NCBI GenBank assembly: GCA_964016885.1
Contig: OZ024747.1
Coordinates: 43,400,001 to 43,464,000, forward strand
Direction of reading: 5' to 3'
Length of the DNA: 64,000 nt
From: Eledone cirrhosa
Lineage: Eukaryota
Position numbers and translations under genes: made by a program. Each line of letters begins with the position of its first letter. Within the stretch, counting starts at the first letter, position 1. Positions 11,903 to 59,880 of this stretch are shown here, one piece after another. The notes under the pieces are model-generated. The model searched no databases. It was not told where the DNA came from and worked only from the letters and a program-made list of their open reading frames with translations.

Positions 11903-12019
11903 AAGTGAATTTTTTCATATTACCCACTCTACTACCACAAGTATCAAGTACTCTGGTGAGTAATGATCTAACTGGTTTTTACCACCTCCATTCTGATATA
12001 TATATATATATATATATAT

Positions 12020-12403
12020 ATGGCTTAATAGTTAGAGCATTGGCCTTGCAATCGAAAGGTTGTGAGTTCAATTCTCAGTTTGGGTGATGTGTTGTTTCCT
12101 TGAGCAAGACACTTTATTTCACATTACTCCAGTTTACTCAGCTGTAGAAATGAGATGATAGGGACTGGGGCCCCTATCATTCCACTGCAAAGTGGTCGTG
12201 GTGGTGCCACGCCAAAAAAGCACCCAGCCCACACTGTAAAGTGGTCGTGGAGGTGCCACGGCAAAATAGCACCCAGCACTCAATGTAAATGAGGTTGATG
12301 TTAGGAAGGGCATCCAGCTGTAGAAATCAAGCCAGAATCAGTTCCCGTCCCACCCTTGCAAGCAGGGAAAAGTGGACATAAAAATGATGATGATGATGAT
12401 GAT
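12020..12403 (+). mobile_element. SINE family B
   Basis: Matches 858-1242; starts in (TA)n. Confidence 0.9.
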
Positions 12404-22742: not shown

Positions 22743-22860
22743 TCGAATAAATACTGATAATCACGGACTATTAAATTGGGAAGAATGTTGATTAAGTGAT
22801 AAGCTAATTTTAGACAAGGAAAAAACATACACACGCACACATATATATATATATATATAT

Positions 22861-25800
22861 TCGACCACGGACGGCTAACATAACACCATCGCCCCCCGCC
22901 CCTCACCGCCCCCAACCCCCAAACGCAATCCAAAACTTCAGAGTTGGTACCATAAATGTAGGCACCCTAAAGGGTCGCGCTAACGAGGTTGTAGAAATGC
23001 TTGAACGTAAGGAGGTCGATGTTTGTTGTATTCAAGAGACCAGGTGGAGGGGTGGGTCTGCTAGGTTCATTGAGGGTAAAAAACGTTGTTATAAGCTTTT
23101 CTGGGTGGGAAACGACGATGGGCTGGGTGGAGTAGGAATCATGGTAGCAGAAAAGTGGGCAGATAAGATAATAGACGTAAATAGAGTGAACGACAGAATA
23201 ATTAAAATACGACTTGTCCTCAATAGAACTACGGTGACAGTAATATCTGCGTACGCACCCCAATCCGGACTGCCCGGCACTATAAAAGACAGATTCTATG
23301 AGACACTGATGCTAACTACCTCCCAAATATCCGACAGTGACTATATAATTATCGCAGGCGACCTAAATGGTCACGTTGGACAACATTGTGACGGCTACGA
23401 CGAAATCCATGGAGGCTATGGGTTTGGTACTAGAAATGAGGAAGGCTCCAGAATCCTGGAATTCTGTGATGCAAATAACCTAACTATCTGTAACACTAAC
23501 TTCAAAAAACGTGACAATCACCTGATCACCTATAGATCCGGGGAACACACAAGCCAGGTAGATTATATCCTTACCAGAAGACGTGACAGAGTGTCTGTTG
23601 TTAACACTAAATCCCTCCCCCATGAAGAATGCACCTCCCAACATAGACTGATAATTAGCGACCTCATAGTCAGGACGAGACGTACTCGACAACAGAAGAG
23701 GACTATCCTCAGGAGGAAAATATGGAAGTTAAAGGACCCCACAGCCAGGAATAAATTTCAAAGCATATTACTTGATGCTTTCGACAGTAAGGAAGAACAT
23801 TTAGAGTCGGACAATATAGAGGGAGAGTGGGAATTTCTGAAAGCAAACCTGCTGTTGGCGACAGACGAGGTCTGTGGCTGGAGCAGGCCTGTAGGCAGGA
23901 GGAGAGTAACATGGTGGTGGAACAGTAAGGTGGAGGGGTCAATTAAGGCCAAAAAGCAGGCTTGGAAAGTATGGCGGGATGGGGGAAGTAGAGAGGACTA
24001 TCAAGTGGCCAGGAGGGAAGCTAGGAGACAAGTGTACTTAGCAAGAAGGGAAGCTGAGGAAAGAAAGTTCAAGCATGTTCTACAACGCGATGACCAAAAA
24101 CGTGAGGTGTTCAGGATTGCTAGGCAATGCGTCAAGGAAAACCGTGATATTGTCGGGGAGAAGTGTGTACTAAACGACGATGGCACACTTGCCATCACCG
24201 ACGCTGATAAGAAGGTAGCTTGGAAGTGTCACTATGAAAGGCTTCTAAATGAGGAGAATAATTGGGAGAAAGGCAGTCTCCCCCATATCGACCCAATAGA
24301 GGGACCAGCAGTGTTAGTCGAGGGGAGTATAATAAGTAAGGCAATCAAGGATATGAAGACTGGTAAGGCGGCTGGGCCTTCGGAAATAGTTGCTGAGATG
24401 CTGAAGGCATCTGGCACGGTGGGACACACCATGGTCACCCGCATAGTTAACCAAGTCGTACAAAACGGGGTTGTTCCGAAGGACTGGCATAGCAGCATCA
24501 TCGTTAACTGTTATAAGGGTAAAGGAGACGCCCTAGATAGGAGTAACTATAGAGGCATTAAATTAATCGACCAGGTCATGAAGGTCACGGAAAGAGTAAT
24601 AGCGCAGCTAATCAGAGAGAGAATTGACCTAGATGAAATGCAGTTCGGGTTTGTGTCAGGCAAAAGTACCACAGACGCTCTTTTCATAGTACGACAACTA
24701 CAAGAGAAGTACCTAGCTAAAGGTAAACCCCTCTACTTAGCTTTTGTCGACTTGGAGAAAGCCTTCGACAGAGTCCCCCGCTCCATTATCTGGTGGGCTC
24801 TTAGAAAACTAGGCGTTGACGAATGGCTTGTGAGGGCTATACAAGCCATGTATAAAGAAACAGTCAGCAAGGTTAGAATTAACAACGAATATAGTGAAGA
24901 GTTTAGCGTAAAAGTCGGCGTCCATCAGGGCTCTGTTCTCAGTCCACTACTATTTATTATTGCCCTTCAGGCCATAACAGAGGAGTTCAAGACAGGCTGC
25001 CCATGGGAACTCCTATACGCAGACGACCTGACACTCATAGCGGAATCAATGGCCGAGCTAGAGAAGAAATTCCAAACATGGAAGCACGGCCTAGAGTCAA
25101 AAGGACTTAAAATTAACCTGGCTAAGACCAAAGTACTAGTTTGTAGGAAAGAAAACAAGGCGGCGGTCCCTTCTGGGAAATGGTCGTGCTCGGTGTGTAG
25201 GAAAGGCGTAGGTAGAAACTCCATTTTATGTCCTAAATGCAAAGTATGGGTGCATAAAAGATGTAGTGGGATCACAGGTAGGCTAACTAAGAACATAGAT
25301 TTTACATGTGGCCGGTGCTCTGGTGCATTAAGTAGCAGCAAGTGCCCACAAACTACTAGCTCTTTCAATTGCGCAGAGGGTTCTATAGAAATAGTGGACA
25401 GCTTCCGTTACCTGGGCGATAAAATCAGCAGTGGGGGAGGGTGCTCTGAAAGTACTGTAGCTAGAGTCAGAACTGGTTGGAAAAAGTTCAGAGAGCTTAT
25501 ACCACTATTAGCTGCTAAAGGGTTCTCACTAAAAATGAAAGGCAGGTTGTACGATGCCTGCATACGAACAGCAATGCTGCATGGCAGTGAGACCTGGGCA
25601 TTGTGTGCAGAGGATATACGCAGACTAGAGAGGAACGAAGCTTGCATGCTCCGCTGGATGTGTAACAGTAATATACGTGAACGGCAAAGCATAAACGAAC
25701 TAAGGAATAAATTAGAGATAAGAGGGATCAGATGTTGTTTACTCGAGAGAAGGCTACGTTGGTATGGACACGTGATGCGCATGAAAGTCGATAGCTGTAT

Positions 25801-26364
25801 AACAAAGTGCAGGGCAATAAAGATAGACGGTAGTCACGGAATAGGCAGACCTAGAAAAACCTGGGACGAGCTGATAAACTCCGACATCACACACTTACAC
25901 CTCTCCAAGACAATGTCACTGGACCGAGACCTTTGGCGGTACTCAGTAACAGAGAAGACCCGCCTTACCTAAATATATAGTAAAACCTACTCCAGCCAGT
26001 AGGCATCTCTAACAAATACACCCCGTCCCACCACCCCCACCCGATCCACACCACCCCGTTCTATGTAAAGTTATGTTGGTGCCGCGCCATCGAGGCCGAA
26101 ACAAATGAGATCGTGTAGGTGTCACGACAAAAAAACACACAGTCCACGCTGTAATGTGGCCGTGTAGGCAACACGGTAAAAACCTCCCAGACCCACACTG
26201 TAAATGTGGTTGGTGTTAGGAAGGGCATCCAACTGTAGAAAACCTGCCAGACAGTCCTATGCGAGCAAGACAATCACTCTTGCCTCAAGTGGGACTACCC
26301 CCGTCCAAACCCATGCAAGCGTGGAACACGGACGTTAAACGCTGATGATGATGATGATGATGAT
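22861..26364 (+). mobile_element. Near full-length RTE-clade LINE, subfamily 1
   Basis: Starts right after (TA)n; single APE-RT ORF; ~370-nt 3' UTR; (TGA)n tail running into (TA)n. Confidence 0.95.
22862..25972 (+). CDS. RTE ORF: AP endonuclease plus reverse transcriptase with an embedded PHD-type zinc finger (first ATG at 22997)
   Basis: APE motifs FRVGTINVGTL (upstream of the ATG, same frame), IQETRW, GDLNGH, DYIL, SQHR; RT motifs FVDLEKAFD, GVHQGSVLSP, LYADD, FRYLG; C-terminal RRLRWYGHV..GRPRKTW; no in-frame stop. Confidence 0.95.
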   Translation, partial: RPRTANITPSPPAPHRPQPPNAIQNFRVGTINVGTLKGRANEVVEMLERKEVDVCCIQETRWRGGSARFIEGKKRCYKLFWVGNDDGLGGVGIMVAEKWADKIIDVNRVNDRIIKIRLVLNRTTVTVISAYAPQSGLPGTIKDRFYETLMLTTSQISDSDYIIIAGDLNGHVGQHCDGYDEIHGGYGFGTRNEEGSRILEFCDANNLTICNTNFKKRDNHLITYRSGEHTSQVDYILTRRRDRVSVVNTKSLPHEECTSQHRLIISDLIVRTRRTRQQKRTILRRKIWKLKDPTARNKFQSILLDAFDSKEEHLESDNIEGEWEFLKANLLLATDEVCGWSRPVGRRRVTWWWNSKVEGSIKAKKQAWKVWRDGGSREDYQVARREARRQVYLARREAEERKFKHVLQRDDQKREVFRIARQCVKENRDIVGEKCVLNDDGTLAITDADKKVAWKCHYERLLNEENNWEKGSLPHIDPIEGPAVLVEGSIISKAIKDMKTGKAAGPSEIVAEMLKASGTVGHTMVTRIVNQVVQNGVVPKDWHSSIIVNCYKGKGDALDRSNYRGIKLIDQVMKVTERVIAQLIRERIDLDEMQFGFVSGKSTTDALFIVRQLQEKYLAKGKPLYLAFVDLEKAFDRVPRSIIWWALRKLGVDEWLVRAIQAMYKETVSKVRINNEYSEEFSVKVGVHQGSVLSPLLFIIALQAITEEFKTGCPWELLYADDLTLIAESMAELEKKFQTWKHGLESKGLKINLAKTKVLVCRKENKAAVPSGKWSCSVCRKGVGRNSILCPKCKVWVHKRCSGITGRLTKNIDFTCGRCSGALSSSKCPQTTSSFNCAEGSIEIVDSFRYLGDKISSGGGCSESTVARVRTGWKKFRELIPLLAAKGFSLKMKGRLYDACIRTAMLHGSETWALCAEDIRRLERNEACMLRWMCNSNIRERQSINELRNKLEIRGIRCCLLERRLRWYGHVMRMKVDSCITKCRAIKIDGSHGIGRPRKTWDELINSDITHLHLSKTMSLDRDLWRYSVTEKTRLT

Positions 26365-27517: not shown

Positions 27518-29913
27518 TCATCATCATCATCATCATCAACGTTTAACGTCCGTGTTCCACGCTTGCATGGGTTTGGACGGGGGTAGTCCCACTTGAGGCA
27601 AGAGTGATTGTCTTGCTCGCATAGGACTGTCTGGCAGGTTTTCTACAGTTGGATGCCCTTCCTAACACCAACCACATTTACAGTGTGGGTCTGGGAGGTT
27701 TTTACCGTGTTGCCTACACGGCCACATTACAGCGTGGACTGTGTGTTTTTTTGTCGTGACACCTACACGATCTCATTTGTTTCGGCCTCGATGGCGCGGC
27801 ACCAACATAACTTTACATAGAACGGGGTGGTGTGGATCGGGTGGGGGTGGTGGTGGTGGGACGGGGTGTATTTTGTTAGAGATGCCTACTGGCTGGAGTA
27901 GGTTTTACTATATATTTAGGTAAGGCGGGTCTTCTTTGTTACTGAGTACCGCCAAAGGTCTCGGTCCAGTGACATTGTCTTGGAGAGGTGTAAGTGTGTG
28001 ATGTCGGAGTTTATCAGCTCGTCCCAGGTTTTTCTAGGTCTGCCTATTCCGTGACTACCGTCTATCTTTATTGCCCTGCACTTTGTTATACAGCTATCGA
28101 CTTTCATGCGCATCACGTGTCCATACCAACGTAGCCTTCTCTCGAGTAAACAACATCTGATCCCTCTTATCTCTAATTTTTTTCCTTAGTTCGTTTATGC
28201 TTTGCCGTTCACGTATATTACTGTTACACATCCAGCGGAGCATGCAAGCTTCGTTCTTCTCTAGTCTGCGTATATCCTCTGCACACAATGCCCAGGTCTC
28301 ACTGCCATGCAGCATTGCTGTTCGTATGCAGGCATCGTACAACCTGCCTTTCATTTTTAGTGAGAACCCTTTAGCAGCTAATAGTGGTATAAGCTCTCTG
28401 AACTTTTTCCAACCAGTTCTGACTCTAGCTACAGTACTTTCAGAGCACCCTCCCCCACTGCTGATTTTATCGCCCAGGTAACGGAAGCTGTCCACTATTT
28501 CTATAGAACCCTCTGCGCAATTGAAAGAGCTAGTATTTTGTGGGCACTTGCTGCTACTTATTGCACCAGAACACCGGCCACATGTAAAATCTATGTTCTT
28601 AGTTAGCTTACCTGTGATCCCACTACATCTTTTATGCACCCATACTTTGCATTTAGGACATAAAATGGAGTTTCTACCTACGCCTTTCCTACACACCGAG
28701 CACGACCATTTCCCAGAAGGGACCGCCGCCTTGTTTTCTTTCCTACAAACTAGTACTTTGGTCTTAGCCAGGTTAATTTTAAGTCCTTTTGACTCTAGGC
28801 CGTGCTTCCATGTTTGGAATTTCTTCTCTAGCTCGGCCATTGATTCCGCTATGAGTGTCAGGTCGTCTGCGTATAGGAGTTCCCATGGGCAGCCTGTCTT
28901 GAACTCCTCTGTTATAGCCTGAAGGGCAATAATAAATAGTAGTGGGCTGAGAACAGAGCCCTGATGGACGCCAACTTTTACGCTAAACTCTTCACTATAT
29001 TCGTTGTTAATTCTAACCTTGCTGACTGTTTCTTTATACATGGCTTGTATAGCCCTCACAAGCCATTCGTCAATGCCTAGTTTTCTAAGAGCCCACCAGA
29101 TAATGGAGCGGGGGACTCTGTCGAAGGCTTTCTCCAAGTCGACAAAAGCTAAGTAGAGGGGTTTACCTTTAGCTAGGTACTTCTCCTGTAGTTGTCGTAC
29201 TATGGAAAGAGCGTCTGTGGTACTTTTGCCTGACACAAACCCGAACTGCATTTCATCTAGGTCAATTCTCTCTCTGATTAGTTGCGCTATTACTTTTTCC
29301 GTGACCTTCATGACCTGGTCGATTAATTTAATGCCTCTATAGTTACTCCTATCTAGGGCGTCTCCTTTACCCTTATAACAGTTAACGATGATGCTGCTAT
29401 GCCAGTCCTTCGGAACAACCCCATTCTGTACGACTTGGTTAACTATGCGGGTGACCATGGTGTGTCCCACCGTGCCAGATGCCTTCAGCATCTCAGCAAC
29501 TATTTCCGAAGGCCCAGCCGCCTTACCAGTCTTCATATCCTTGATTGCCTTACTTATTATACTCCCCTCGACTAACACTGCTGGTCCCTCTATTGGGTCG
29601 ATATGGGGGAGACTGCCTTTCTCCCAATTATTCTCCTCATTTAGTAGCCTTTCATAGTAACACTTCCAAGCTACCTTCTTATCAGCGTCGGTGATGGCAA
29701 GTGTGCCATCGTCGTTTAGTACACACTTCTCCCCGACAATATCACGGTTTTCCTTGACGCATTGCCTAGCAATCCTGAACACCTCACGTTTTTGGTCATC
29801 GCGTTGTAGAACATGCTTGAACTTTCTTTCCTCAGCTTCCCTTCTTGCTAAGTACACTTGTCTCCTAGCTTCCCTCCTGGCCACTTGATAGTCCTCTCTA
29901 CTTCCCCCATCCC

Positions 29914-29918
<5 letters not shown>
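27518..29918 (-). pseudogene. 5'-truncated RTE LINE, subfamily 1 (frameshift near 28180)
   Basis: Near-identical to 23971-26364; an extra T in the T-run splits the ORF; both ends in (TA)n. Confidence 0.95.
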
Positions 29919-29951
<33 letters not shown>

Positions 29952-30481
29952 CATACACACACATTCATGCACATATACGTACACATATGTGTATGTAGAC
30001 ACATACATATATACATACATATATACTGACACATGCACATGCACACACAGACACAATTTACATGTTTTTTTTTTTAATTCTTATTTTCATAAAATTAACT
30101 TTTTCTTTTACTGTTTCTTGATTTTCAGTTTTTTCCAAATCTTTTTAACATTTTAAAATAATTTTTTAAATTTTCATGGATAATTTTTCTCTATCTATCT
30201 CACTCTCTCACTCATTCACACACACTCTCTCTCTCTCCTTTTATCTATCTATGTTTTTTCCTTATTTTCTCCCTCTTCTCTTTCTTTAAGTCTTTCCACT
30301 TTATTTTCTCTCCCTGAATCACTTTCCTCACACGTGATTCTAAGATGATTTTGAACCAAATAAACTGTTTCATTGATAGTTTGTCCAAATAACTGCAGCC
30401 CCCGCCACAATATATGCAGGTGCATAAGTATATATAAACAGACACACAAGCACACAGGCACACAGACATTAATATATATAA

Positions 30482-31715: not shown

Positions 31716-32538
31716 ATATATATACCTACTGATATATATATCGTTTTGTGATATTTTGCATTTTTGCAATAATATTATAATACTGAATTTCATCCGCCAA
31801 AAATAAGGGTTGCCTCCCTTGTCGAGCCCCACGTAGGTATCGGTAACGGTCATTCCTTCGCCTGGCACTTGAACTAAAACCTGTTGAGAAAGTGACTTCC
31901 TTGTTCAATCATCTTACCAGAAGCCTAACATTATTTGTCTAAGCAGACAGTACTTGATTTAGGAGTCGCAGAAACACAAATGCTGGATTTTACCAACCAT
32001 CCAGGGGTCCGGGTAAATTTTTCAATCACATATTTTTTTATTTGTTTGACCCGAATTACTTGGTCGTTTCTATGGCTGTGCGGATGACGGTTTAACGATC
32101 GTCTCAGTGTGTTTGGCCTTTAACGTATGTTGTAGCTCTGGTTCGTCAGAATTATTGAGCGCTTGCCACACATCTCGGAAGCTGTTTGTCGCTAATTCCA
32201 AAACCGAAATACGATTCTCGCTAATTTATATTTATATATATATATATATATATAAATGGAATAGATTGAAACGAAATTTCATTTCTCACTCTTAGTACGG
32301 CACTTACTTAAATGTAAGTATGTATGTATGTATACGTACATACATATATATATATACAGGCGTACAGTAGTATGTATATATATACACACATGCACACATA
32401 TATATATGCACGTATCGGTTTACCGAACATTTATTATAATGCTCGGTTTGTTTGTTTGTAAACAAACAAACAGCCCGAATTACGCCGTAGAGTGTTTAGG
32501 CAACCAGATCACCTTTTTGTTCAACACTGACACAGGAA

Positions 32539-32579
32539 CGATGTACTAGTTTCAAGCTTATTAGCTATCGTCAGCATCG
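32539..32579 (-). ncRNA. Minimal type I hammerhead ribozyme (family HH-B)
   Basis: Minus strand: cgatg-CTGACGA-tagct aata agctt-GAAA-ctag-TA-catcg. Confidence 0.85.
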
Positions 32580-32904
32580 TATTGCTTCCTGCCAGATAGT
32601 TGAACGTCTGAAAGTATATACTTTCCTTATGCATATTAACGGCTGAGCAGCCTAATTTGCATATCGAGTGAGTTCAGTCTGTATACATATATGTATGTAC
32701 GTATACATACATACATACTTACATTTAAGTAAGTGCCGTACTAAGAGTGAGAAATGAAATTTCGTTTCATTCTATTCCATTTATCGTTTTCGGTGTGCCC
32801 GGCCGACTGAACTCACTCGATATGCAAATTAGGCTGCTCAGCCGTTAATATGCATGAGGAAAGTATATACTTTCAGACATTCAACCATCTGGCAGGAAGG
32901 TATA

Positions 32905-32945
32905 CGATGCTGATGATAGCTAATAAGCTTGAAACTAGTACATTG
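32905..32945 (+). ncRNA. Minimal type I hammerhead ribozyme (family HH-B)
   Basis: cgatg-CTGATGA-tagctaataagctt-GAAA-ctag-TA-cattg. Confidence 0.85.
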
Positions 32946-33185
32946 TTCCTGTGTCAGTGTTGAACAAAAAGGTGACGTGGTTGACTAAACACTCTACAGC
33001 GTAATTCGGGCTGTTTGTTTGTTTACAAACAAACAAACTGAGCATTATAATAAATGTTCGGTAAACCGATACGTGCATATATATATGTGTGTATATACAT
33101 ATATGTATTCAGACGTACAGTAGTATGTATATATATATATATATACGTCTGTATACATATATGTATGTACGTATACATACATACT

Positions 33186-33227
<42 letters not shown>

Positions 33228-33531: not shown

Positions 33532-33865
33532 TAGTTATGTAATAAACAACAAGATAATTATTTCATTTATCAGTGGTTTCTTGAAGGCAGATATTTATAT
33601 CTGTCTTCAGTTGTCAGAATGAATAAATAACATGGTGTTTCTATTAAATATGGATTTTCCATATTAAATAAAATCCATATTTAATAGAAACACCATGTTA
33701 TTTATTCATTCTGACAACTGAAGACAGATATAAATATCTGCCTTCAAGAAACCACTGATAAAGGAAATAATTATCTTATGTTGTTTATTACATAACTAAT
33801 AAGCTCTGTAACCTACATAGAGCACTCTTTTTTCCTGTGCCTTTCCGATGGAAATACTTCATGAA
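33532..33865. mobile_element. Fold-back element (~127-bp arms, 33532-33798) with a variant hammerhead-like motif on each arm, plus tail
   Basis: ttattcatt-CTGACAA-ctgaagacagata/tatctgccttcaa-GAAA-ccactga-TA-aa(t/g)gaaataa; the core has G8->A. Confidence 0.7.
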
Positions 33866-36607: not shown

Positions 36608-36658
36608 AGCTTCCTGAAGATTTCATCTGAATGAAACAGTACTAGTCCTGTAGAAGCT
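36608..36658 (+). ncRNA. Hammerhead-like motif (family HH-C)
   Basis: agcttc-CTGAAGA-tttcatctgaat-GAAA-cagtactag-TC-ctgta-gaagct; stem I is offset by 5 nt. Confidence 0.45.
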
Positions 36659-39955: not shown

Positions 39956-40744
39956 CTCACCAGCTGAATAATGGAATTGTTATATTACTAAATCCTTCAA
40001 AATTCTTGATTTTATTTTTTTTTTTTCAAAATGATTTGAAAATCATTGGTGGTGATTTTCATGGGATATATGTTAGTGAAAAAGTTAATAAATACACTAT
40101 ATATGTTGATATCTGGGATAATAAATATCTGAAAGATTTTAAAATATAAAGGATTACAAATAAAACAAAACCCTTTTCTTTACAACCTTATGTCCAAGCT
40201 TAGATAAATCTCAAAATTAAAAAATATACCTCAAAGATAAACATACATATATGCATATATATATATATATATGTATATCAAAAGAGATTGATAAATAATA
40301 TATAATGATCATATATGTATATATATATTTAATATAGAAATGGCTTCTAAAAGGACTAGAACTGTTTCATTTGGGAGAAATCATCAGGGCTTCCCCATCC
40401 ACATGCACACACACACACACAGACCTATACCCCACCCCACACACACACCTTTTTCCTGAACATGGAACCTCGTTCTCCCCCCCACCCCAATTCTCACATT
40501 CACATGCACACACACACGTACACCTACACACATACACAAACACCACCTTCAGCCCTCCCGGCTCGGACACCCTGCCTCCCTCTCCCTACTCCACCCACCA
40601 CCACCCCTACACGCCCCACACCCTTCCACCACTTGTTTATCTTTATGTTTATATTTTTATTTGTACCCCTTTCACCCCCCTCTTTTTTCAAAATGTCTCT
40701 CCATCACTCCCCCACACACCGTCGGAACTCTCTTCCCACCCACT

Positions 40745-40820
40745 TCTCTCCTGAAGAAGGGCTTATGCCCGAAACGTCGTTCCCCTCCCCCCACTCTCAT
40801 TGAGCATGAAACTAATAAAC
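40745..40820 (+). ncRNA. Penelope-type hammerhead-like motif followed by aataaa
   Basis: CTGAAGA-a-gggc ttat gccc-GAAA-cg-TC; stem I not evident. Confidence 0.55.
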
Positions 40821-40860
40821 CTTTGTTTGTACTGCCTCTCTGTTTTCGTTCCCATTCCAA

Positions 40861-43993
<3,133 letters not shown>

Positions 43994-51984: not shown

Positions 51985-52019
<35 letters not shown>

Positions 52020-52290
52020 AACGGAAAAAATGAAACAAAATTTCATTTCTCACTCTTAGTACGGCTGTTACTTAAATATAAGTATGTATACGTACATGCA
52101 TATATGTATACAGACGTACAGTAGTATGTATATATATATATATACATACATGCATACATATATATATGTACGTATGCACACATATATATGTACGTATATA
52201 TATATATATAATTAAATATATTCATATATACATATATATATATATGATATATATATATCATATATGTATTTATATATATCATATATATAT

Positions 52291-54726
52291 ATCATCATCA
52301 TCATCATCACCGTTTTACGTCCGTTCTTCCACGCTAGCATGGGTTAGATGGGTTGTCCTGTTGTGGGCAGTGTCTGGTCGGCTGACCATGCCTTGCTCAT
52401 ACAGGAACTGATCTGGCTTGATTTCTACAGCTGGATGCCCTTCCTAACACCAACCTCATTTACAGTGAGTGCTGGGTGCTTTTTCGTGGCGCCTACACGT
52501 CCACTTTACAGTGTGGGCTGGGTGCTTTTTTGCCGTGGCACCTCCACGACCACCTTGCGGTGGGGGGGGGGGGGCATATTGTTTATATGCTTCAGCATGT
52601 ACCCATGGGAGGTCGGGTACCCTGTATTACTGCGTGACGCCAGAAGTCACGGTCGTGTGTCATTGACTTTGAGAGGTGTAGTTGGGTAAGGTCGGCTTTT
52701 ATCACCTCATCCCAAGTCATCTTGGGTCTCCCCACTCCGCGGTTTCCATCAACTTCTAGTGCTCTGCACCTTTTTATGCAGCTGTCATCCTTCATACGCA
52801 TCACATGTCCATACCAGCGTAACTGCCTCCCCTGCACGCAGCATTTGATTCCTCTTATGCTCAGTCTCTCTCTCAATTCATTTATGCTTTGTCGTTCACG
52901 TATATTACTGTTACACATCCATCGGAGCATGCAGGCTTCGTTTCTCTCTAATCTACGTAAGTCTTCCACCTTCAGCGCCCAGGTCTCACTACCATGCAAC
53001 ATCGCTGTTCGGATACACGCATCATACAGTCTGCCTTTCATTCTGAGGGAGAAGCCTTTTGCAGCTAGCAGTGGTAGTAGTTCCCTAAACTTCTTCCATC
53101 CCGTTCTTACCCTAGTTATTGTACTTTCTGAGCACCCACCTCCGTTGCTAATTCGGTCACCTAGGTAGCAGAAGCTGTCTACTGTTTCTACAGGGCCCTC
53201 CCAGAGATTGGTGGTACTTGTTTCCTGTGGCTGTTTGCTTGCTGTTTCAGCACAGCTGCTGCATGTGAATCCTACATTCTTAATTAAGCTTCCTGAGATC
53301 CCGCTACATCTCTTGTGTACCCATTGTTTGCATTTGGGGCAAAGAATGGAGTTCCTACCTACACCTTTCCTACATACTGAGCAAGGCCATTTCCCTGAGG
53401 GGATCTGGGTTCTGTTTTCTCGTCTACTTATAAGGACCTTAGTCTTTGTCATGTTGACTTTGAGGCCCTTTCTCTCTAGTCCCTGCTTCCAGGTTTGGAA
53501 TTTATTCTCTAGTTCTACCATAGATTCAGCTATGAGTGCGAGGTCATCAGCATACAGGAGTTCCCATGGGCATCCGGTCTTAAACTCCTCCGTTATTGCC
53601 TGCAGGACTATGATGAACAGGAGAGGGCTAAGAACAGAGCCCTGGTGGACCCCAACCTGTACGCTAAATTCCTCGCTATACTCATTGCCAATCCTAACTT
53701 TGCTGACTGCTCCCCTATACATGGCTTGTACCGCTTTCACAAGCCATTCATCTACTCCTAGTTTTCTAAGAGCCCACCAGATTACTGCACGTGGAACTCT
53801 GTCAAAGGCTTTCTCAAGGTCGACAAATGCCAAGTAGAGTGGCTTACTTTTAGCTAGGTACTTTTCCTGTAATTGCCTCACAAGGAAGAGCGCATCAGTG
53901 GTGCCTTTCCCTGGAACAAACCCAAATTGCATCTCGTCTATATTCACCCGGTCCCTAATCAGCTGTGCTATAACTCTTTCTGTTACTTTCATGACCTGGT
54001 CCATCAACTTTATACCTCTATAGTTTCCTCTATCTAGTGCATCGCCTTTACCTTTGTAGCAGTTGACAATGATGCTACTGCACCAATCTTTTGGTATGGC
54101 CCCCTCTAGTATTACCTGGTTAACGATACGTGTGGTTATAGTGTGACCTACAGACCCAGATGCCTTCAGCATCTCGGCAGCTATACCCGATGGACCGGTT
54201 GCCTTCCCTATCTTCATATCTCTGATTGCCTTACTTACTACGCTGCCGCTGACTTGTACTGCTGGTCCCTCTATAGGGTCTACGTGGGGTAGGGTCTCTT
54301 CTTCCCATGCATTCTCCTCATTTAGTAATCTATCATAATGACTCTTCCATGCATCTTTCTTCTCAGCACTTGTGAGGGCAAGCTCACCTTTATCATTCCG
54401 GATACACTTCTCTCCAATGACATCACAACTATCTCTGACACACTGCCTCGCAATCTTGAATACCTCCTGTTTCTGGTCCTCACGTTGTAAAACATGCTTG
54501 AATTTTCTATCCTCTGCTTCCCTCCTAGCTAAGTATACTTGTCGCCTAGCTTCCCTCTTGGTCTCTATGTAATGTACCCTGCTCCCCCCGTTCTTCCATT
54601 CTTTCCATGCCTGTCTCTTGGCCTTGACTGCTTCATCTACCTTATTGTTCCACCACCAAGTCACTCTCCTCCTGCTTGAGGTCTTACTCCAGCCACAAAC
54701 CTCATCCGTCGCCTCTAGTAAGTTAA
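52291..54726 (-). mobile_element. 5'-truncated RTE LINE, subfamily 2, with uninterrupted RT ORF (stop at 52592)
   Basis: ORF 52592-54726 has all RT motifs and the PHD finger; TA-rich flanks on both sides. Confidence 0.95.
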
Positions 54727-54854
54727 TATATGATATATAAATGTTATATATATATATGTATGTATATATATATATCATATATATATGTTATATATATATA
54801 TATATCATATATATATGTTATATATATGTTATATATATATATCATATATATATG

Positions 54855-55367: not shown

Positions 55368-56032
55368 TAACCAAAGATTAATGCGGTTCATTGATTACTC
55401 AATGAATATAGTTTTACAATAGATTAAAAGCACTCTACAAGAAAGTTTACTGGAGTTATTATTATTCAGAATAATAATAAATGAAGACATTCAAAAATGA
55501 AGACATTCACATTGACTGCCAATACTGAAATTGAACCATCAAGACCGTTGAGGTATGTCATACATCAATTCATGTATTTTATCTGATGAGGACGTACTGA
55601 AAAAACAGCACAGTACCTTCGAAATATCATCATCATCATCATCATCATTGTTTAACGTCCATCTTCCACGCTTGCATGGGTTTGGATGGGAGTTTTCCCA
55701 CTTGAGGCAAGATTGGTTGTCTTGCTCATATAGGACTGTCTGGCGGGTTTTCTCCGGCTGGACGCCCTTCCTGACACCAACCACATTTACAGTGTGGACT
55801 AGGAGGTTTTTACCGTGTTACCTACATGGCCACATTACAGCGTGGACTGTGTGTTTTTTTTTTGTGACAGCTACACGAGACGGGGGTGTATTTTTGTTAG
55901 AGGTGCCTACTGACTGTAGGTTTCGCTTTGTACTTAGGCAAGGCAGGTCTTCTGTATTACTGTGTAGCGCCAAATATATAATAAAACATATATTTTGATT
56001 ATGTGAATGTCTTCATTTATTATTATTATGAA

Positions 56033-56282: not shown

Positions 56283-56893
56283 ATGGTGGCTGCCAACTCG
56301 TTTTCGAGTACGGCCACTACTTTATATCCATGTAGGAGAACCCCTACCGATGCGCTGAACGAGTGTGACTTTTTAGTCCAGCCAGCGACTTGAAAACTCT
56401 GGTACAAACACTACACTTGTGACAATTACTGACACATAGTGCTGGGCCCATGGTACCATGTGACGACAAGTGCAGAGAGATCTCCAGATATAAAGCAATG
56501 CCTGTGCCGTGAAGCTTTTATAGTGAGCAAAGGCACTGCACAAAGCCAGTCCCACTCTCTTAACCAAGATGATATTTACCAAAAAGAAGAACAAGTCAAC
56601 ATCATTGGATACCATCAGGGTTGCAGGTGTTATATCAGAGTTTTCCTTCTCCTAGAATTCTGCCTTGACAAAGGCTAAGGGGTCATCCCTCCCGGTGATT
56701 TTGGATGGCCATTGACTCTTAAGAGCTCCTTTGCCCTTTGACAGGTTTTGTTTTTAGTCCTGCAGGATGTCCAAAGTCACCCTCCTCACCAAGAAACCTT
56801 GGTGGGGTTGCCAGTTTAGTCGCCAACGACCCGACCATGGGACAGGTTGTACTGGGATACATGTTACCAGTAGCACCAACTGGTGACCTGACA
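56283..56893 (-). mobile_element. Family T element, full length
   Basis: Near-identical reverse complement of 58104-58711. Confidence 0.9.
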
Positions 56894-57804: not shown

Positions 57805-57854
<50 letters not shown>

Positions 57855-58103
57855 AACGGAAAAAATGAAACGAAATTTCATTTCTCACTCTTAGTACGGT
57901 TGTTACTTAAATATAAGTATGTATACGTACATACATATATGTATACAGATGTACAGTAGTATGTATATATATACATACATGCACACATATATATATGTAC
58001 GTATGGATTCACCGAACATTTATTATAATGCTCGGTGTGTTTGGAAACAAACATCCCGAATTATGTGTACATGTATGTATATATATATATATATATATAT
58101 GTA

Positions 58104-58711
58104 TGTCAGGTCACCAGTTGGTGCTACTGGTAACATGTATGCCAGTACAACCTGTCTCATGGTCGGGTCGTTGGCAACTAAACTGGCAACCCCACCAAGG
58201 TTTCTTGGTGAGGAGGGTGACTTTGGACATCCTGCAGGACTAAAAACAAAACCTGTCAAAGGGCAAAGGAGCTCTTAAGAGTCAATGGCCATCCAAAATC
58301 ACCAGGAGAGATGACCCCTTAGCCTTTGTCAAGGCAGAATTCTAGGAGAAGGAAAACTCTGATATAACATCTGCAACCCTGATGGTATCCAATGATGTTG
58401 ACTTGTTCTTCTTTTTGGTAAATATCATCTTGGTTAAGAGAGTGGGACTGGCTTTGTGCAGTGCCTTTGCTCACTATAAAAGCTTCACGGCACAGGCATT
58501 GCTTTATATCTGGAGATCTCTCTGCACTTGTTGTCACATGGTACCATGGGCCCAGCACTATGTGTCAATAATTGTCACAAGTGTAGTGTTTGTACCAGAG
58601 TTTTCAAGTTGCTGGCTGGACTAAAATGTCACTCGTTCAGCGCATCGGTAGGGGTTCTCCTACATGGATATAAAGTAGTGGCCGTACTCGAAAACGAGTT
58701 GGCAGCCACCA
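58104..58711 (+). mobile_element. Family T element, full length
   Basis: tgtcaggtcac...ggcagccacca, flanked by (TA)n. Confidence 0.9.
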
Positions 58712-58953
58712 TATATATATATACATACTACTGTACGTCTGTATACATATATGTATGTACGTATACATACTTATATTTAAGTAACAGCCGTACTAAGAGT
58801 GGGAAATGAAATTTTGTTTCATTTTTTCCGTTTATTGTTTTCGGTACTCTGGTCGATTAACTCACTCGATATGCAAATTAGGCTGCTCAGCCGTTAATAT
58901 GCATAAGGAAAGTATATACTTTCAGACGTTCAACCATCTGGCAGGAAGGTATA

Positions 58954-58994
58954 CGGTGCTGATGATAGCTAATAAGCTTGAAACTAGTACAGCG
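58954..58994 (+). ncRNA. Minimal type I hammerhead (family HH-B) within unit 58725-59150
   Basis: cggtg-CTGATGA-tagctaataagctt-GAAA-ctag-TA-cagcg. Confidence 0.8.
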
Positions 58995-59158
58995 TTCCTT
59001 TGTCAGTGTTGAACAAATGAGCAACGATGGTTGCTAGACACTACGGCTTAATTCGGGATGTTTGTTTACAAACACACCGAGCATTGTAATAAATGTTCGG
59101 TGAATCCATACGTACATATATATATGTGTGCATGTATGTATATATATATATATATATA

Positions 59159-59767
59159 TGTCAGGTCACCAGTTGGTGCTACTGGTAACATGTATCCCAG
59201 TACAACCTGTCTCATGGTCGGGTCGTTGGCGACTAAACTGGCAACCCCACCAAGGTTTCTTGGTGAGGAGGGTGGCTTTGGACATCCTGCAGGACTAAAA
59301 ACAAAACCTGTCAAAAGGCAAAGGGGCTCTTAAGAGTCAATAGCCATCCAAAATCACCGGGAGAGATGACCCCTTAGCCTTTGTCAAGGCAGAATTCTAG
59401 GAGAAGGAAAACTCTGATATAACACCTGCAACCCTGATGGTATCCAATGATGTTGAATTGTTCTTCTTTTTGGTAAATATCATCTTGGTTAAGAGAGTGG
59501 GACTGGCTTTGTGCAGTGCCTTTGCTCACTATAAAAGCTTCACAGCACAGGCATTGCTTTATATCTGGAGATCTCTCTGCACTTGTCGTCACATGGTACC
59601 ATTGGCCCAGCACTATGTGTCAATAATTGTCACAAGTGTAGTGTTTGTACCAGAGTTTTCAAGTCGCTGGCTGGACTAAAAAGTCACATTCGTTCAGCGC
59701 ATTGGTAGGGGTTCTCCTACATGGATATAAAGTAGTGGCCGTACTCGAAAACGAGTTGGCAGCCACC

Positions 59768-59768
<1 letters not shown>
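59159..59768 (+). mobile_element. Family T element, full length
   Basis: Near-identical to 58104-58711. Confidence 0.9.
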
Positions 59769-59798
<30 letters not shown>

Positions 59799-59842
59799 CT
59801 ACTGTACGTCTGTATACATATATGTATGTACGTATACATACT

Positions 59843-59880
<38 letters not shown>

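Follow-up and report, generated by a model that had tools for sequence, protein, structure and literature searches.

A non-coding tandem unit with a predicted hammerhead in Eledone cirrhosa, a likely non-LTR retrozyme with a Penelope-type insertion signature

Non-LTR retrozymes are an established class of animal elements, described for coral, mussel and axolotl (Cervera and de la Peña, 2020, PMC7229834), and the class itself is already known; in the accessible text of a later account the retrozymes are mostly from vertebrates (Li et al., 2026, 10.64898/2026.07.22.740005). The accessible sections of PMC7229834 make no mention of octopus or cephalopod retrozymes, and further literature on the known background is found in PMC6765202 and PMC8967140. 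Two questions are open for animal retrozymes, namely the identity of the mobilising agent and of the transcribing polymerase. For the Penelope protein, a predicted dimer, it was described that it cuts and extends both strands in vitro, that reverse transcription starts at two internal RNA sites bounding the so-called tail, that the strands showed no difference in start site and that cleavage is unnecessary for insertion (Frangieh et al., 2024, PMC11167929, accessible text). Hammerheads next to promoters are known from two further systems: for newt satellite 2 an snRNA-type Pol II promoter inside the repeat was described (Coats et al., 1994, cited in PMC2220036), a hammerhead being present in newt satellite repeats (PMC7229834), and the SINE-like repeats of schistosomes each carry a promoter, reported to be of Pol III type, followed by a hammerhead (cited in PMC2220036 and PMC6765202). 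Moreover, Schistosoma was found to have hammerheads in closely spaced, inverted pairs (PMC4209133).

Here we describe a unit from a window of Eledone cirrhosa DNA, i.e., the whole analysed stretch of 64,000 nucleotides, which is likely a non-LTR retrozyme and was likely pasted into (TA)n by a Penelope-like protein with reverse transcriptase (RT) and GIY-YIG domains. As far as the accessible texts allow comparison, it resembles the metazoan non-LTR retrozymes in its short non-coding tandem units, in its type I hammerhead, of which the palindromic stem III is very short, in its thousands of copies and in the co-occurrence of Penelope-like elements. It differs from them by a unit slightly longer than their 170–400 nt, by a U·U closing pair, by an snRNA-type promoter-like block, by the lack of detectable homology to pseudo-LTRs (pLTRs) in 50 loci or regions, and by inverted two-armed loci with a fixed long/short pair of ends, which make up half of the sample and are undescribed in those accessible texts. 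With the insertions of the Penelope elements Neptune and Naiad (Craig et al., 2021, PMC8557442; PMC11167929; accessible parts) it shares partial tandems, an inverted 5′-truncated copy, a tail at one end, a (TA)n target and a hammerhead near the 3′ region, whereas it has no open reading frame and its tail is about 56 nt long compared with 30–40 nt in that literature; in the autonomous Penelope-like families of the same genome the tail measures about 35–66 nt. Beyond a weak pyrimidine-rich likeness no sequence is shared with the Penelope families sampled. Like newt satellite 2, as described in the parts cited above, it is a tandem repeat with a probable internal snRNA-type promoter and a predicted hammerhead, but it belongs to another phylum, has another sequence, and its promoter is a computational assignment from host genes that combines a U6-type box with U1/U2 spacing. 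The order of promoter and hammerhead in each repeat is also that of the schistosome repeats, whose promoter is reported as Pol III, whereas the elements found here are of the upstream type and lie outside the predicted primary start. No description of the family, its promoter or the counted long/short pairing was found in the main texts of the literature, and the family may be catalogued in Repbase or Dfam under another name.

At 32253–~33189, a non-coding unit of 444 nt that carries a type I hammerhead is inserted as two arms in head-to-head orientation (Table 1). The block order A-B followed by inverted A, linker and inverted B, which the original prediction had read from the letters, is borne out, and the arms, inverted relative to each other, agree at 277 of 290 and at 100 of 103 positions (95–97%). 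The left limit of the predicted extent (32253..33085) stands, but the right one does not, as the right arm reaches ~33189. The long 3′ end of the left arm is joined to (TA)n at 32225–32253. The right arm begins within the final third of one unit and continues through most of the next, with the head-to-tail unit junction at 32784/32785 and a small local inversion at ~33090–33132. The hammerhead cores lie at 32550–32574 (minus) and 32910–32934 (plus); the 41-nt spans given for the two hammerheads (32539–32579 minus, 32905–32945 plus) were correct, and an extra stem I A-U pair at the ends extends them to 43 nt. Likewise, the octamer that had been noticed, ATGCAAAT, is present at 32822 (+) and 32662 (−). 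Just downstream of the locus, at 33560–33770, there is a near-perfect inverted repeat with arms of about 100 bp and a CTGAAGA…GAAA match on each strand.

Table 1. Features of the unit family in the window (positions within the window).
Feature	Position	Strand	Remarks
Left arm	32253..32679	-	5′-truncated (begins at unit position 21); long 3′ end
Tail between short and long 3′ ends, ~56 nt	32254..32308	-	left arm only
Head-to-head junction	32677..32679	.	3-nt overlap compatible with either arm
Right arm	32677..33189	+	longer than one unit; short 3′ end into (TA)n
Hammerhead type I	32538..32580	-	predicted cut after GUA, between 32544 and 32543
Hammerhead type I	32904..32946	+	predicted cut after 32940
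Promoter-like block, left arm	32590..32663	-	13-nt box 32663-32651, TCAG box, TATA 32620-32614, predicted +1 32590
13-nt box including octamer, right arm	32821..32833	+	matches the -77 box of host U6/U6atac/MRP genes
TCAG box, right arm	32838..32842	+	-56 from predicted +1, as in host U1/U2
TATA-like element, right arm	32864..32870	+	at -30, within a 16-bp palindrome; predicted +1 32894
Short 5′-truncated copy	52018..52175	-	long end in (TA)n
Second two-armed insertion	57852..59850	.	long and short ends

For the three loci at 32253, 52018 and 57852 a common end before (TA)n had been predicted. They do share an end point, the long one, but it is not the only one: two exist, and the short one is used by the right arm of the 32253 locus and by the arm ending at ~59850. 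The second two-armed locus (57852–59850) also fits a rule of one long and one short end, with a minus arm at 57852–58063 (long end) and a plus arm up to ~59850 (short end) that has a hammerhead core at 58959–58983. A 608-nt passenger repeat of another family lies at 58106–58711 and 59161–59768, inside the unit's internal (TA) tract in both tandem units of this locus and 97% alike, as if it had travelled with the unit, enlarged to about 1,050 nt; a further copy is located at 56284–56891 (minus).

Outside the window, the 33-nt hammerhead core has 9,994 exact matches in the 3.0-Gb genome (reversed control: 0) and the head-to-tail unit junction has 2,519 (control: 0). The genome contains at least ten thousand copies of this 420–540-base non-coding repeat. 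The predicted tandem unit of ~450 nt agrees with the hammerhead-to-hammerhead spacing, which is 420–538 nt in all 36 pairs less than 1,200 nt apart, and tandem arrays comprise 4–6 units, some more than 15. The mapped sample comprises 135 loci, 23 further ones having been removed beforehand by eye because they overlapped; it consists of the 30 best matches to the window copy and the first matches listed along contig C1 and is not random. In 124 of these loci the arms belong to the 444-nt unit family, and the remaining 11 carry a second hammerhead family. The first family falls into three subfamilies, 83–91% alike, with units of 430–483 nt, and 62 of its 124 loci are two-armed and head-to-head. 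In line with the prediction of no credible reading frame, the longest ATG-initiated frame in the circularised unit has 73 aa; no RT or GIY-YIG frame was found in the unit and no LTR pair in the arm maps. The reading as a retrozyme family, i.e., a non-coding tandem unit with a type I hammerhead occurring genome-wide, is thus supported. The predicted fold energy of the unit lies well below that of shuffled sequences (z = −7.6). The first 276 nt of the unit were found in contigs of samples organism A, B and C (four runs, kind unrecorded), matches that speak for the presence of the element and carry no information on starts, strand or level; in one small run the depth was higher over the ribozyme half of the unit, a difference to which we give no weight. 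Long satellite-like arrays of the unit are present on C1 at ~51.785–51.795 Mb (L267) and ~70.058–70.076 Mb (L265, L266). The L267 array has a higher-order period of three units, and such periodicity in some arrays points to amplification at the DNA level as well.

In each arm the hammerhead has a 6-bp stem I, the core CUGAYGA…GAAA, a stem II of 4 bp capped by an AAUA loop, and a palindromic 2-bp stem III, whose pairing with a second copy is predicted at −6.8 kcal/mol. This architecture matches that of the canonical metazoan hammerheads working as dimers (Cervera and de la Peña, PMC4209133, accessible text), and the unit is predicted to carry a self-cutting type I hammerhead. The core positions, except the free position 7, are 97–100% conserved in ~200 aligned segments, a figure that is partly selected since most loci were chosen by their core sequence. 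The stem I pair at position 123/159 varies between A-U, G·U and U·G; in 14 distinct rows 94.7% of the cells pair and the covariation score exceeds that of 499 of 500 shuffles, most conserved pairs being invariant. No ribozyme match at gathering level was obtained with Rfam in the window; the best relevant match was Hammerhead_HH9 with 16.9 bits (gathering threshold 52, E 0.52), and the Rfam matches to miRNAs were discarded as simple-repeat noise. Stem II is closed by U·U in nearly all copies, not by G–C, and since G10.1-C11.1 is described as highly conserved in hammerheads (Cervera, 2014, PMC4209133, accessible text) the activity of the ribozyme may be low; the second family has A·A at this site. 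For Xenopus retrozymes, the accessible text reports cleavage in one of nine dimers (Li et al., 2026, 10.64898/2026.07.22.740005).

The arms enter (TA)n at two 3′ ends about 56 nt apart, a long one at unit positions 427–444 and a short one at 370–395. The 124 loci contain 201 arms, of which 87 end long, 83 short and 26 elsewhere, 5 being cut by the locus edge, and (TA)n follows 148 of the 170 classed ends. Among 65 distinct head-to-head pairs, 48 combine a long with a short end, one is short with short and none long with long; in 15 one end is unclassed and one pair is cut by the edge. This corresponds to long with short in 48 of the 49 classifiable pairs (binomial p 8.7e-14 against independent choice). 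The two arms of an insertion may stem from one RNA or from two. In all 37 pairs compared, an arm was nearer to its partner than to the median of the other arms, and at two young loci (L167, L244) both arms are identical; private variants shared by the arms of one locus numbered 14, no more than in controls (13). Any target-site duplications would be hidden since the insertions sit in (TA)n. The comparison of junction microhomology in 40 loci was crude and ill-suited to subfamily variants; the window locus has a 3-nt overlap.

These regularities also bear on a DNA-level origin, in which the repeat would be a satellite, a MITE- or Helitron-like element or a fold-back rearrangement with an incidental hammerhead motif. 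The three-unit period of the L267 array and the many palindromes of the unit would fit such an origin, which is nevertheless highly improbable: the variable 5′ truncation, the two fixed 3′ ends and the pairing of long with short are found with identical anatomy in RT-encoding elements, the unit has no intrinsic terminal inverted repeat, and the end-pairing rule largely refutes it.

The arms are informative about the template as well. Within the classed set 83 of 170 arms exceed 460 nt, and no pile-up of 5′ breakpoints was seen at the cut site, the breakpoints being spread over the unit (those at two mapping boundaries were excluded from this count). The template was therefore longer than a cut linear monomer; it is a circle or an uncut multimer, and either fits equally. 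It is conceivable, although we consider it rather unlikely, that neither an RNA circle nor a working ribozyme is involved and that uncleaved read-through transcripts of master arrays serve as templates while the hammerhead is slow or vestigial. The U·U pair closing stem II, the 5′ breakpoints without accumulation at the cut site, the long satellite-like arrays and the finding that uncleaved RNA was the main in vitro substrate of a Penelope element (PMC11167929, accessible text) agree with this, but the core is invariant in three subfamilies and is kept with other stems in the second family. Moreover, the identical units of young arrays (L149, with four shared private variants) fit rolling around one circle, as they would fit a homogenised array.

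Elements encoding an RT with a C-terminal GIY-YIG domain are abundant in the genome, with 10,596 candidates. The cysteine linker of the autonomous elements resembles that of Neptune and Nematis, for which such a linker was described (PMC8557442, accessible text), and on the basis of this linker they appear Neptune-like. Five autonomous Penelope-like families each have two 3′ ends before (TA)n, and by eye all ten head-to-head autonomous loci (L015, L072, L080, L103, L108, L114, L115, L118, L120, L184) combine a long with a short end; L061 was excluded from this set, its arms facing each other and both being long, i.e., two insertions. What was described as a tail often present on one end thereby becomes a near-strict rule of one of each, common to five autonomous families, and from this rule follows a prediction for the use of the two start sites by a Penelope dimer. 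The link to Penelope that had been proposed is supported by the pair of 3′ ends, with a long and a short one in each inverted insertion, and by the (TA)n target, both as in autonomous elements. The one-tailed inverted insertions correspond to the Penelope tail signature and the unit was therefore likely moved by double target-primed reverse transcription of the Penelope type, i.e., it was likely inserted by the same chemistry as that of Penelope proteins. In the accessible parts of prior papers, the link between retrozymes and Penelope rests on co-occurrence and on pLTR similarity, whereas here the tail signature is found on the retrozyme insertions themselves. The inverted arrangement had originally been derived from a tandem or circular template; instead, priming of the Penelope type, which uses both strands of the target, accounts for it. 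As separate observations, Penelope-like elements and retrozymes pile up in one another's (TA)n flanks, and the Neptune-like Penelope elements at L103–L121 form several families whose frames are intact and long, up to 1,096 aa from stop to stop. Only some of these families have a recognisable hammerhead, several tails sharing an ACYCGTGT-like motif.

In sequence, no clear homology of the unit to Penelope 3′ ends was detected in 50 GIY-YIG loci or regions (30 loci and 20 ten-kb regions), in which BLAST with the unit returned neighbouring insertions only. When its 3′ region was aligned locally with the 3′ ends of six Penelope elements, P < 0.05 was reached in 5 of 24 comparisons, three of them to the L104 family (the long end of the unit on the L104 short end) and two to L106, away from the ends; this likeness is a weak lead because the alignment queries are not independent. 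The unit might also be a solo pLTR of an unsampled autonomous Penelope family, which we regard as quite unlikely. Such an origin draws on the tracing of Xenopus retrozymes to pLTRs (Li et al., 2026, 10.64898/2026.07.22.740005), on the promoters and hammerheads that pLTRs carry (PMC6765202; accessible text of both) and on a comparison that covered just these 50 loci or regions. Against it, arrays of the unit alone are frequent, with the 2,519 head-to-tail junctions, the unit copies in the (TA)n flanks of the 50 Penelope-like loci are separate insertions and not untranslated regions, and the arm maps, which cover the arms themselves, show unit-to-unit joins.

The snRNA-type promoter-like block was compared with host genes. 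There, three U6 loci, the best U6atac locus and the single MRP gene have the 13-nt box with the octamer at −76 to −78 and TATA at −30, and the RNase P gene lacks the box. It thus occurs in 5 of 6 Pol III-type host candidates and in none of 8 U1/U2 genes, a count from which L094 (a second unit from a U6 array already represented), L097, L098 and L102 (insertion between box and gene), six U6 and seven U6atac box-less matches (judged retrocopies by their flanks) and four U6 loci outside the search pattern were excluded. The element's box scores 20.7 bits compared with 12.8–17.7 bits for five host genes in leave-one-out scoring; none of 121,006 background positions reaches 20.7 bits, and the eight U1/U2 upstream regions score at most 5.6. 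In all eight U1/U2 genes TCA(G/A)T is found between −56 and −58, followed by a TATA-like element near −30. If +1 of the element is placed at the A following TGGC, a position that we fitted to the TATA, then TCAGC/T lies at −56/−55, TATA at −30/−28 and the box at −72. The TCAG match is weak, with 6.2 bits in a host range of 6.0–12.6, and the spacing from box to TATA is 42–43 in the element versus 46–48 in U6. Judged by sequence, the putative promoter is a hybrid, a Pol III-type box with U1/U2 geometry. Box, TCAG and TATA are all kept in 67 of 92 units, and the box followed by the hammerhead core has 21,445 matches genome-wide compared with 22 in the control. Box and TATA overlap predicted RNA hairpins; in one subfamily two hairpin pairs are broken and the box is kept. 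Taken as a pattern of letters, the block is probably a real promoter; its predicted start lies 46 nt upstream of the cut site. A distal pyrimidine-rich motif is found near −260 in most host snRNA genes, and no such element was seen by eye in the unit. The host snRNA loci L091, L092, L093, L157 and L165 are of Pol III type, and L123–L126, L137, L138, L257, L258, L261, L262 and L264 of Pol II type; the RNase P RNA gene (L256) has a TCAGT-type promoter, which hints at transcription by Pol II. The block pinpoints the bases to mutate, and the outlined U6-type and U1/U2-type promoter boxes of the host are useful for guide-RNA expression.

With respect to the polymerase, Pol II appears favoured. Transcription by Pol III from a U6-type promoter, with a stop at the T-run near the long end, would give a SINE-like RNA of about 300–340 nt with occasional read-through. 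This is unlikely, even though those of the examined host genes that have the 13-nt box are all of Pol III type and, in three subfamilies as well as in the second family, the first run of at least four T after the predicted start lies no more than ~20 nt from the long end. The spacing from box to TATA is 42 instead of 46–48, TCAG at −56 is a Pol II pattern, and the absence of T4 from the unit body is not significant (P 0.04–0.77). Furthermore, the ends of autonomous Penelope elements are pyrimidine-rich too, subfamily B has a T6 inside its tail, and the passenger, which contains a T5 run, occurs twice in one tandem copy.

An upstream-type promoter is normally not copied through RNA. Pol II would read through T-runs and the promoter itself would therefore be copied from tandem units. 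In the proposed mechanism, the upstream-type snRNA promoter 5′ of the ribozyme in each unit would be read most likely by Pol II, as its spacing suggests, and read-through in tandem arrays would yield RNA longer than one unit, with the following promoter included; two hammerheads acting as a pair may trim this RNA to unit length for circularisation. A dimer of the Penelope protein would then cut both (TA)n strands, and each strand would prime reverse transcription at one of two internal RNA sites separated by about 56 nt. Joining of the two cDNAs at their far, truncated ends would produce an inverted insertion whose outer ends are one long and one short. As a distinctly tentative extension, the unit may represent a clan of retrozymes with a captured upstream-type snRNA promoter, hybrid between the host's U6 box and U1/U2 geometry, that survives through the circular or multimeric template. 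One Penelope dimer would prime twice on a single RNA, at two fixed sites and once for each target strand, so that every inverted insertion would have exactly one end with a tail and one without.

The second hammerhead family (L170, L181, L182, L236–L243, L111, L115, L122) occurs in tandem and inverted in (TA)n. Its unit of ~440–470 nt is ~50% alike to the first family and its hammerhead has different stems, with A·A closing stem II and a 3-bp stem III, the core being retained. It has three 33-nt subrepeats of the octamer box, a tail of ~35 nt and its own two ends. The box, TCAG, the TATA zone and TGGCAG are kept, and a nine-base motif at the short end is common to both families. At ~1300–1620 of L161, an arm of this family adjoins a U6atac retrocopy in head-to-head orientation, possibly through a two-template priming event.

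At least eight additional hammerhead-like families were seen, also in many of the fetched loci; several are U·U-closed at stem II, they often form inverted pairs, and no promoter box was found upstream of them. Hammerhead-like motifs of further families lie in the window at 36614–36636 (+), 40365–40387 (−), 40751–40774 (+) and 55583–55602 (+). The window also contains four LINE copies with endonuclease and RT frames, which we take to be RTE-like, at 22814–25972 (+, with an open frame of 1,052 aa), 28094–30073 (−), 40755–43693 (+) and 52592–54787 (−). Finally, a tRNA-like Rfam match of 34 bits at 12014–12086 (+), beside (AT)n, is probably the head of a tRNA-derived SINE.
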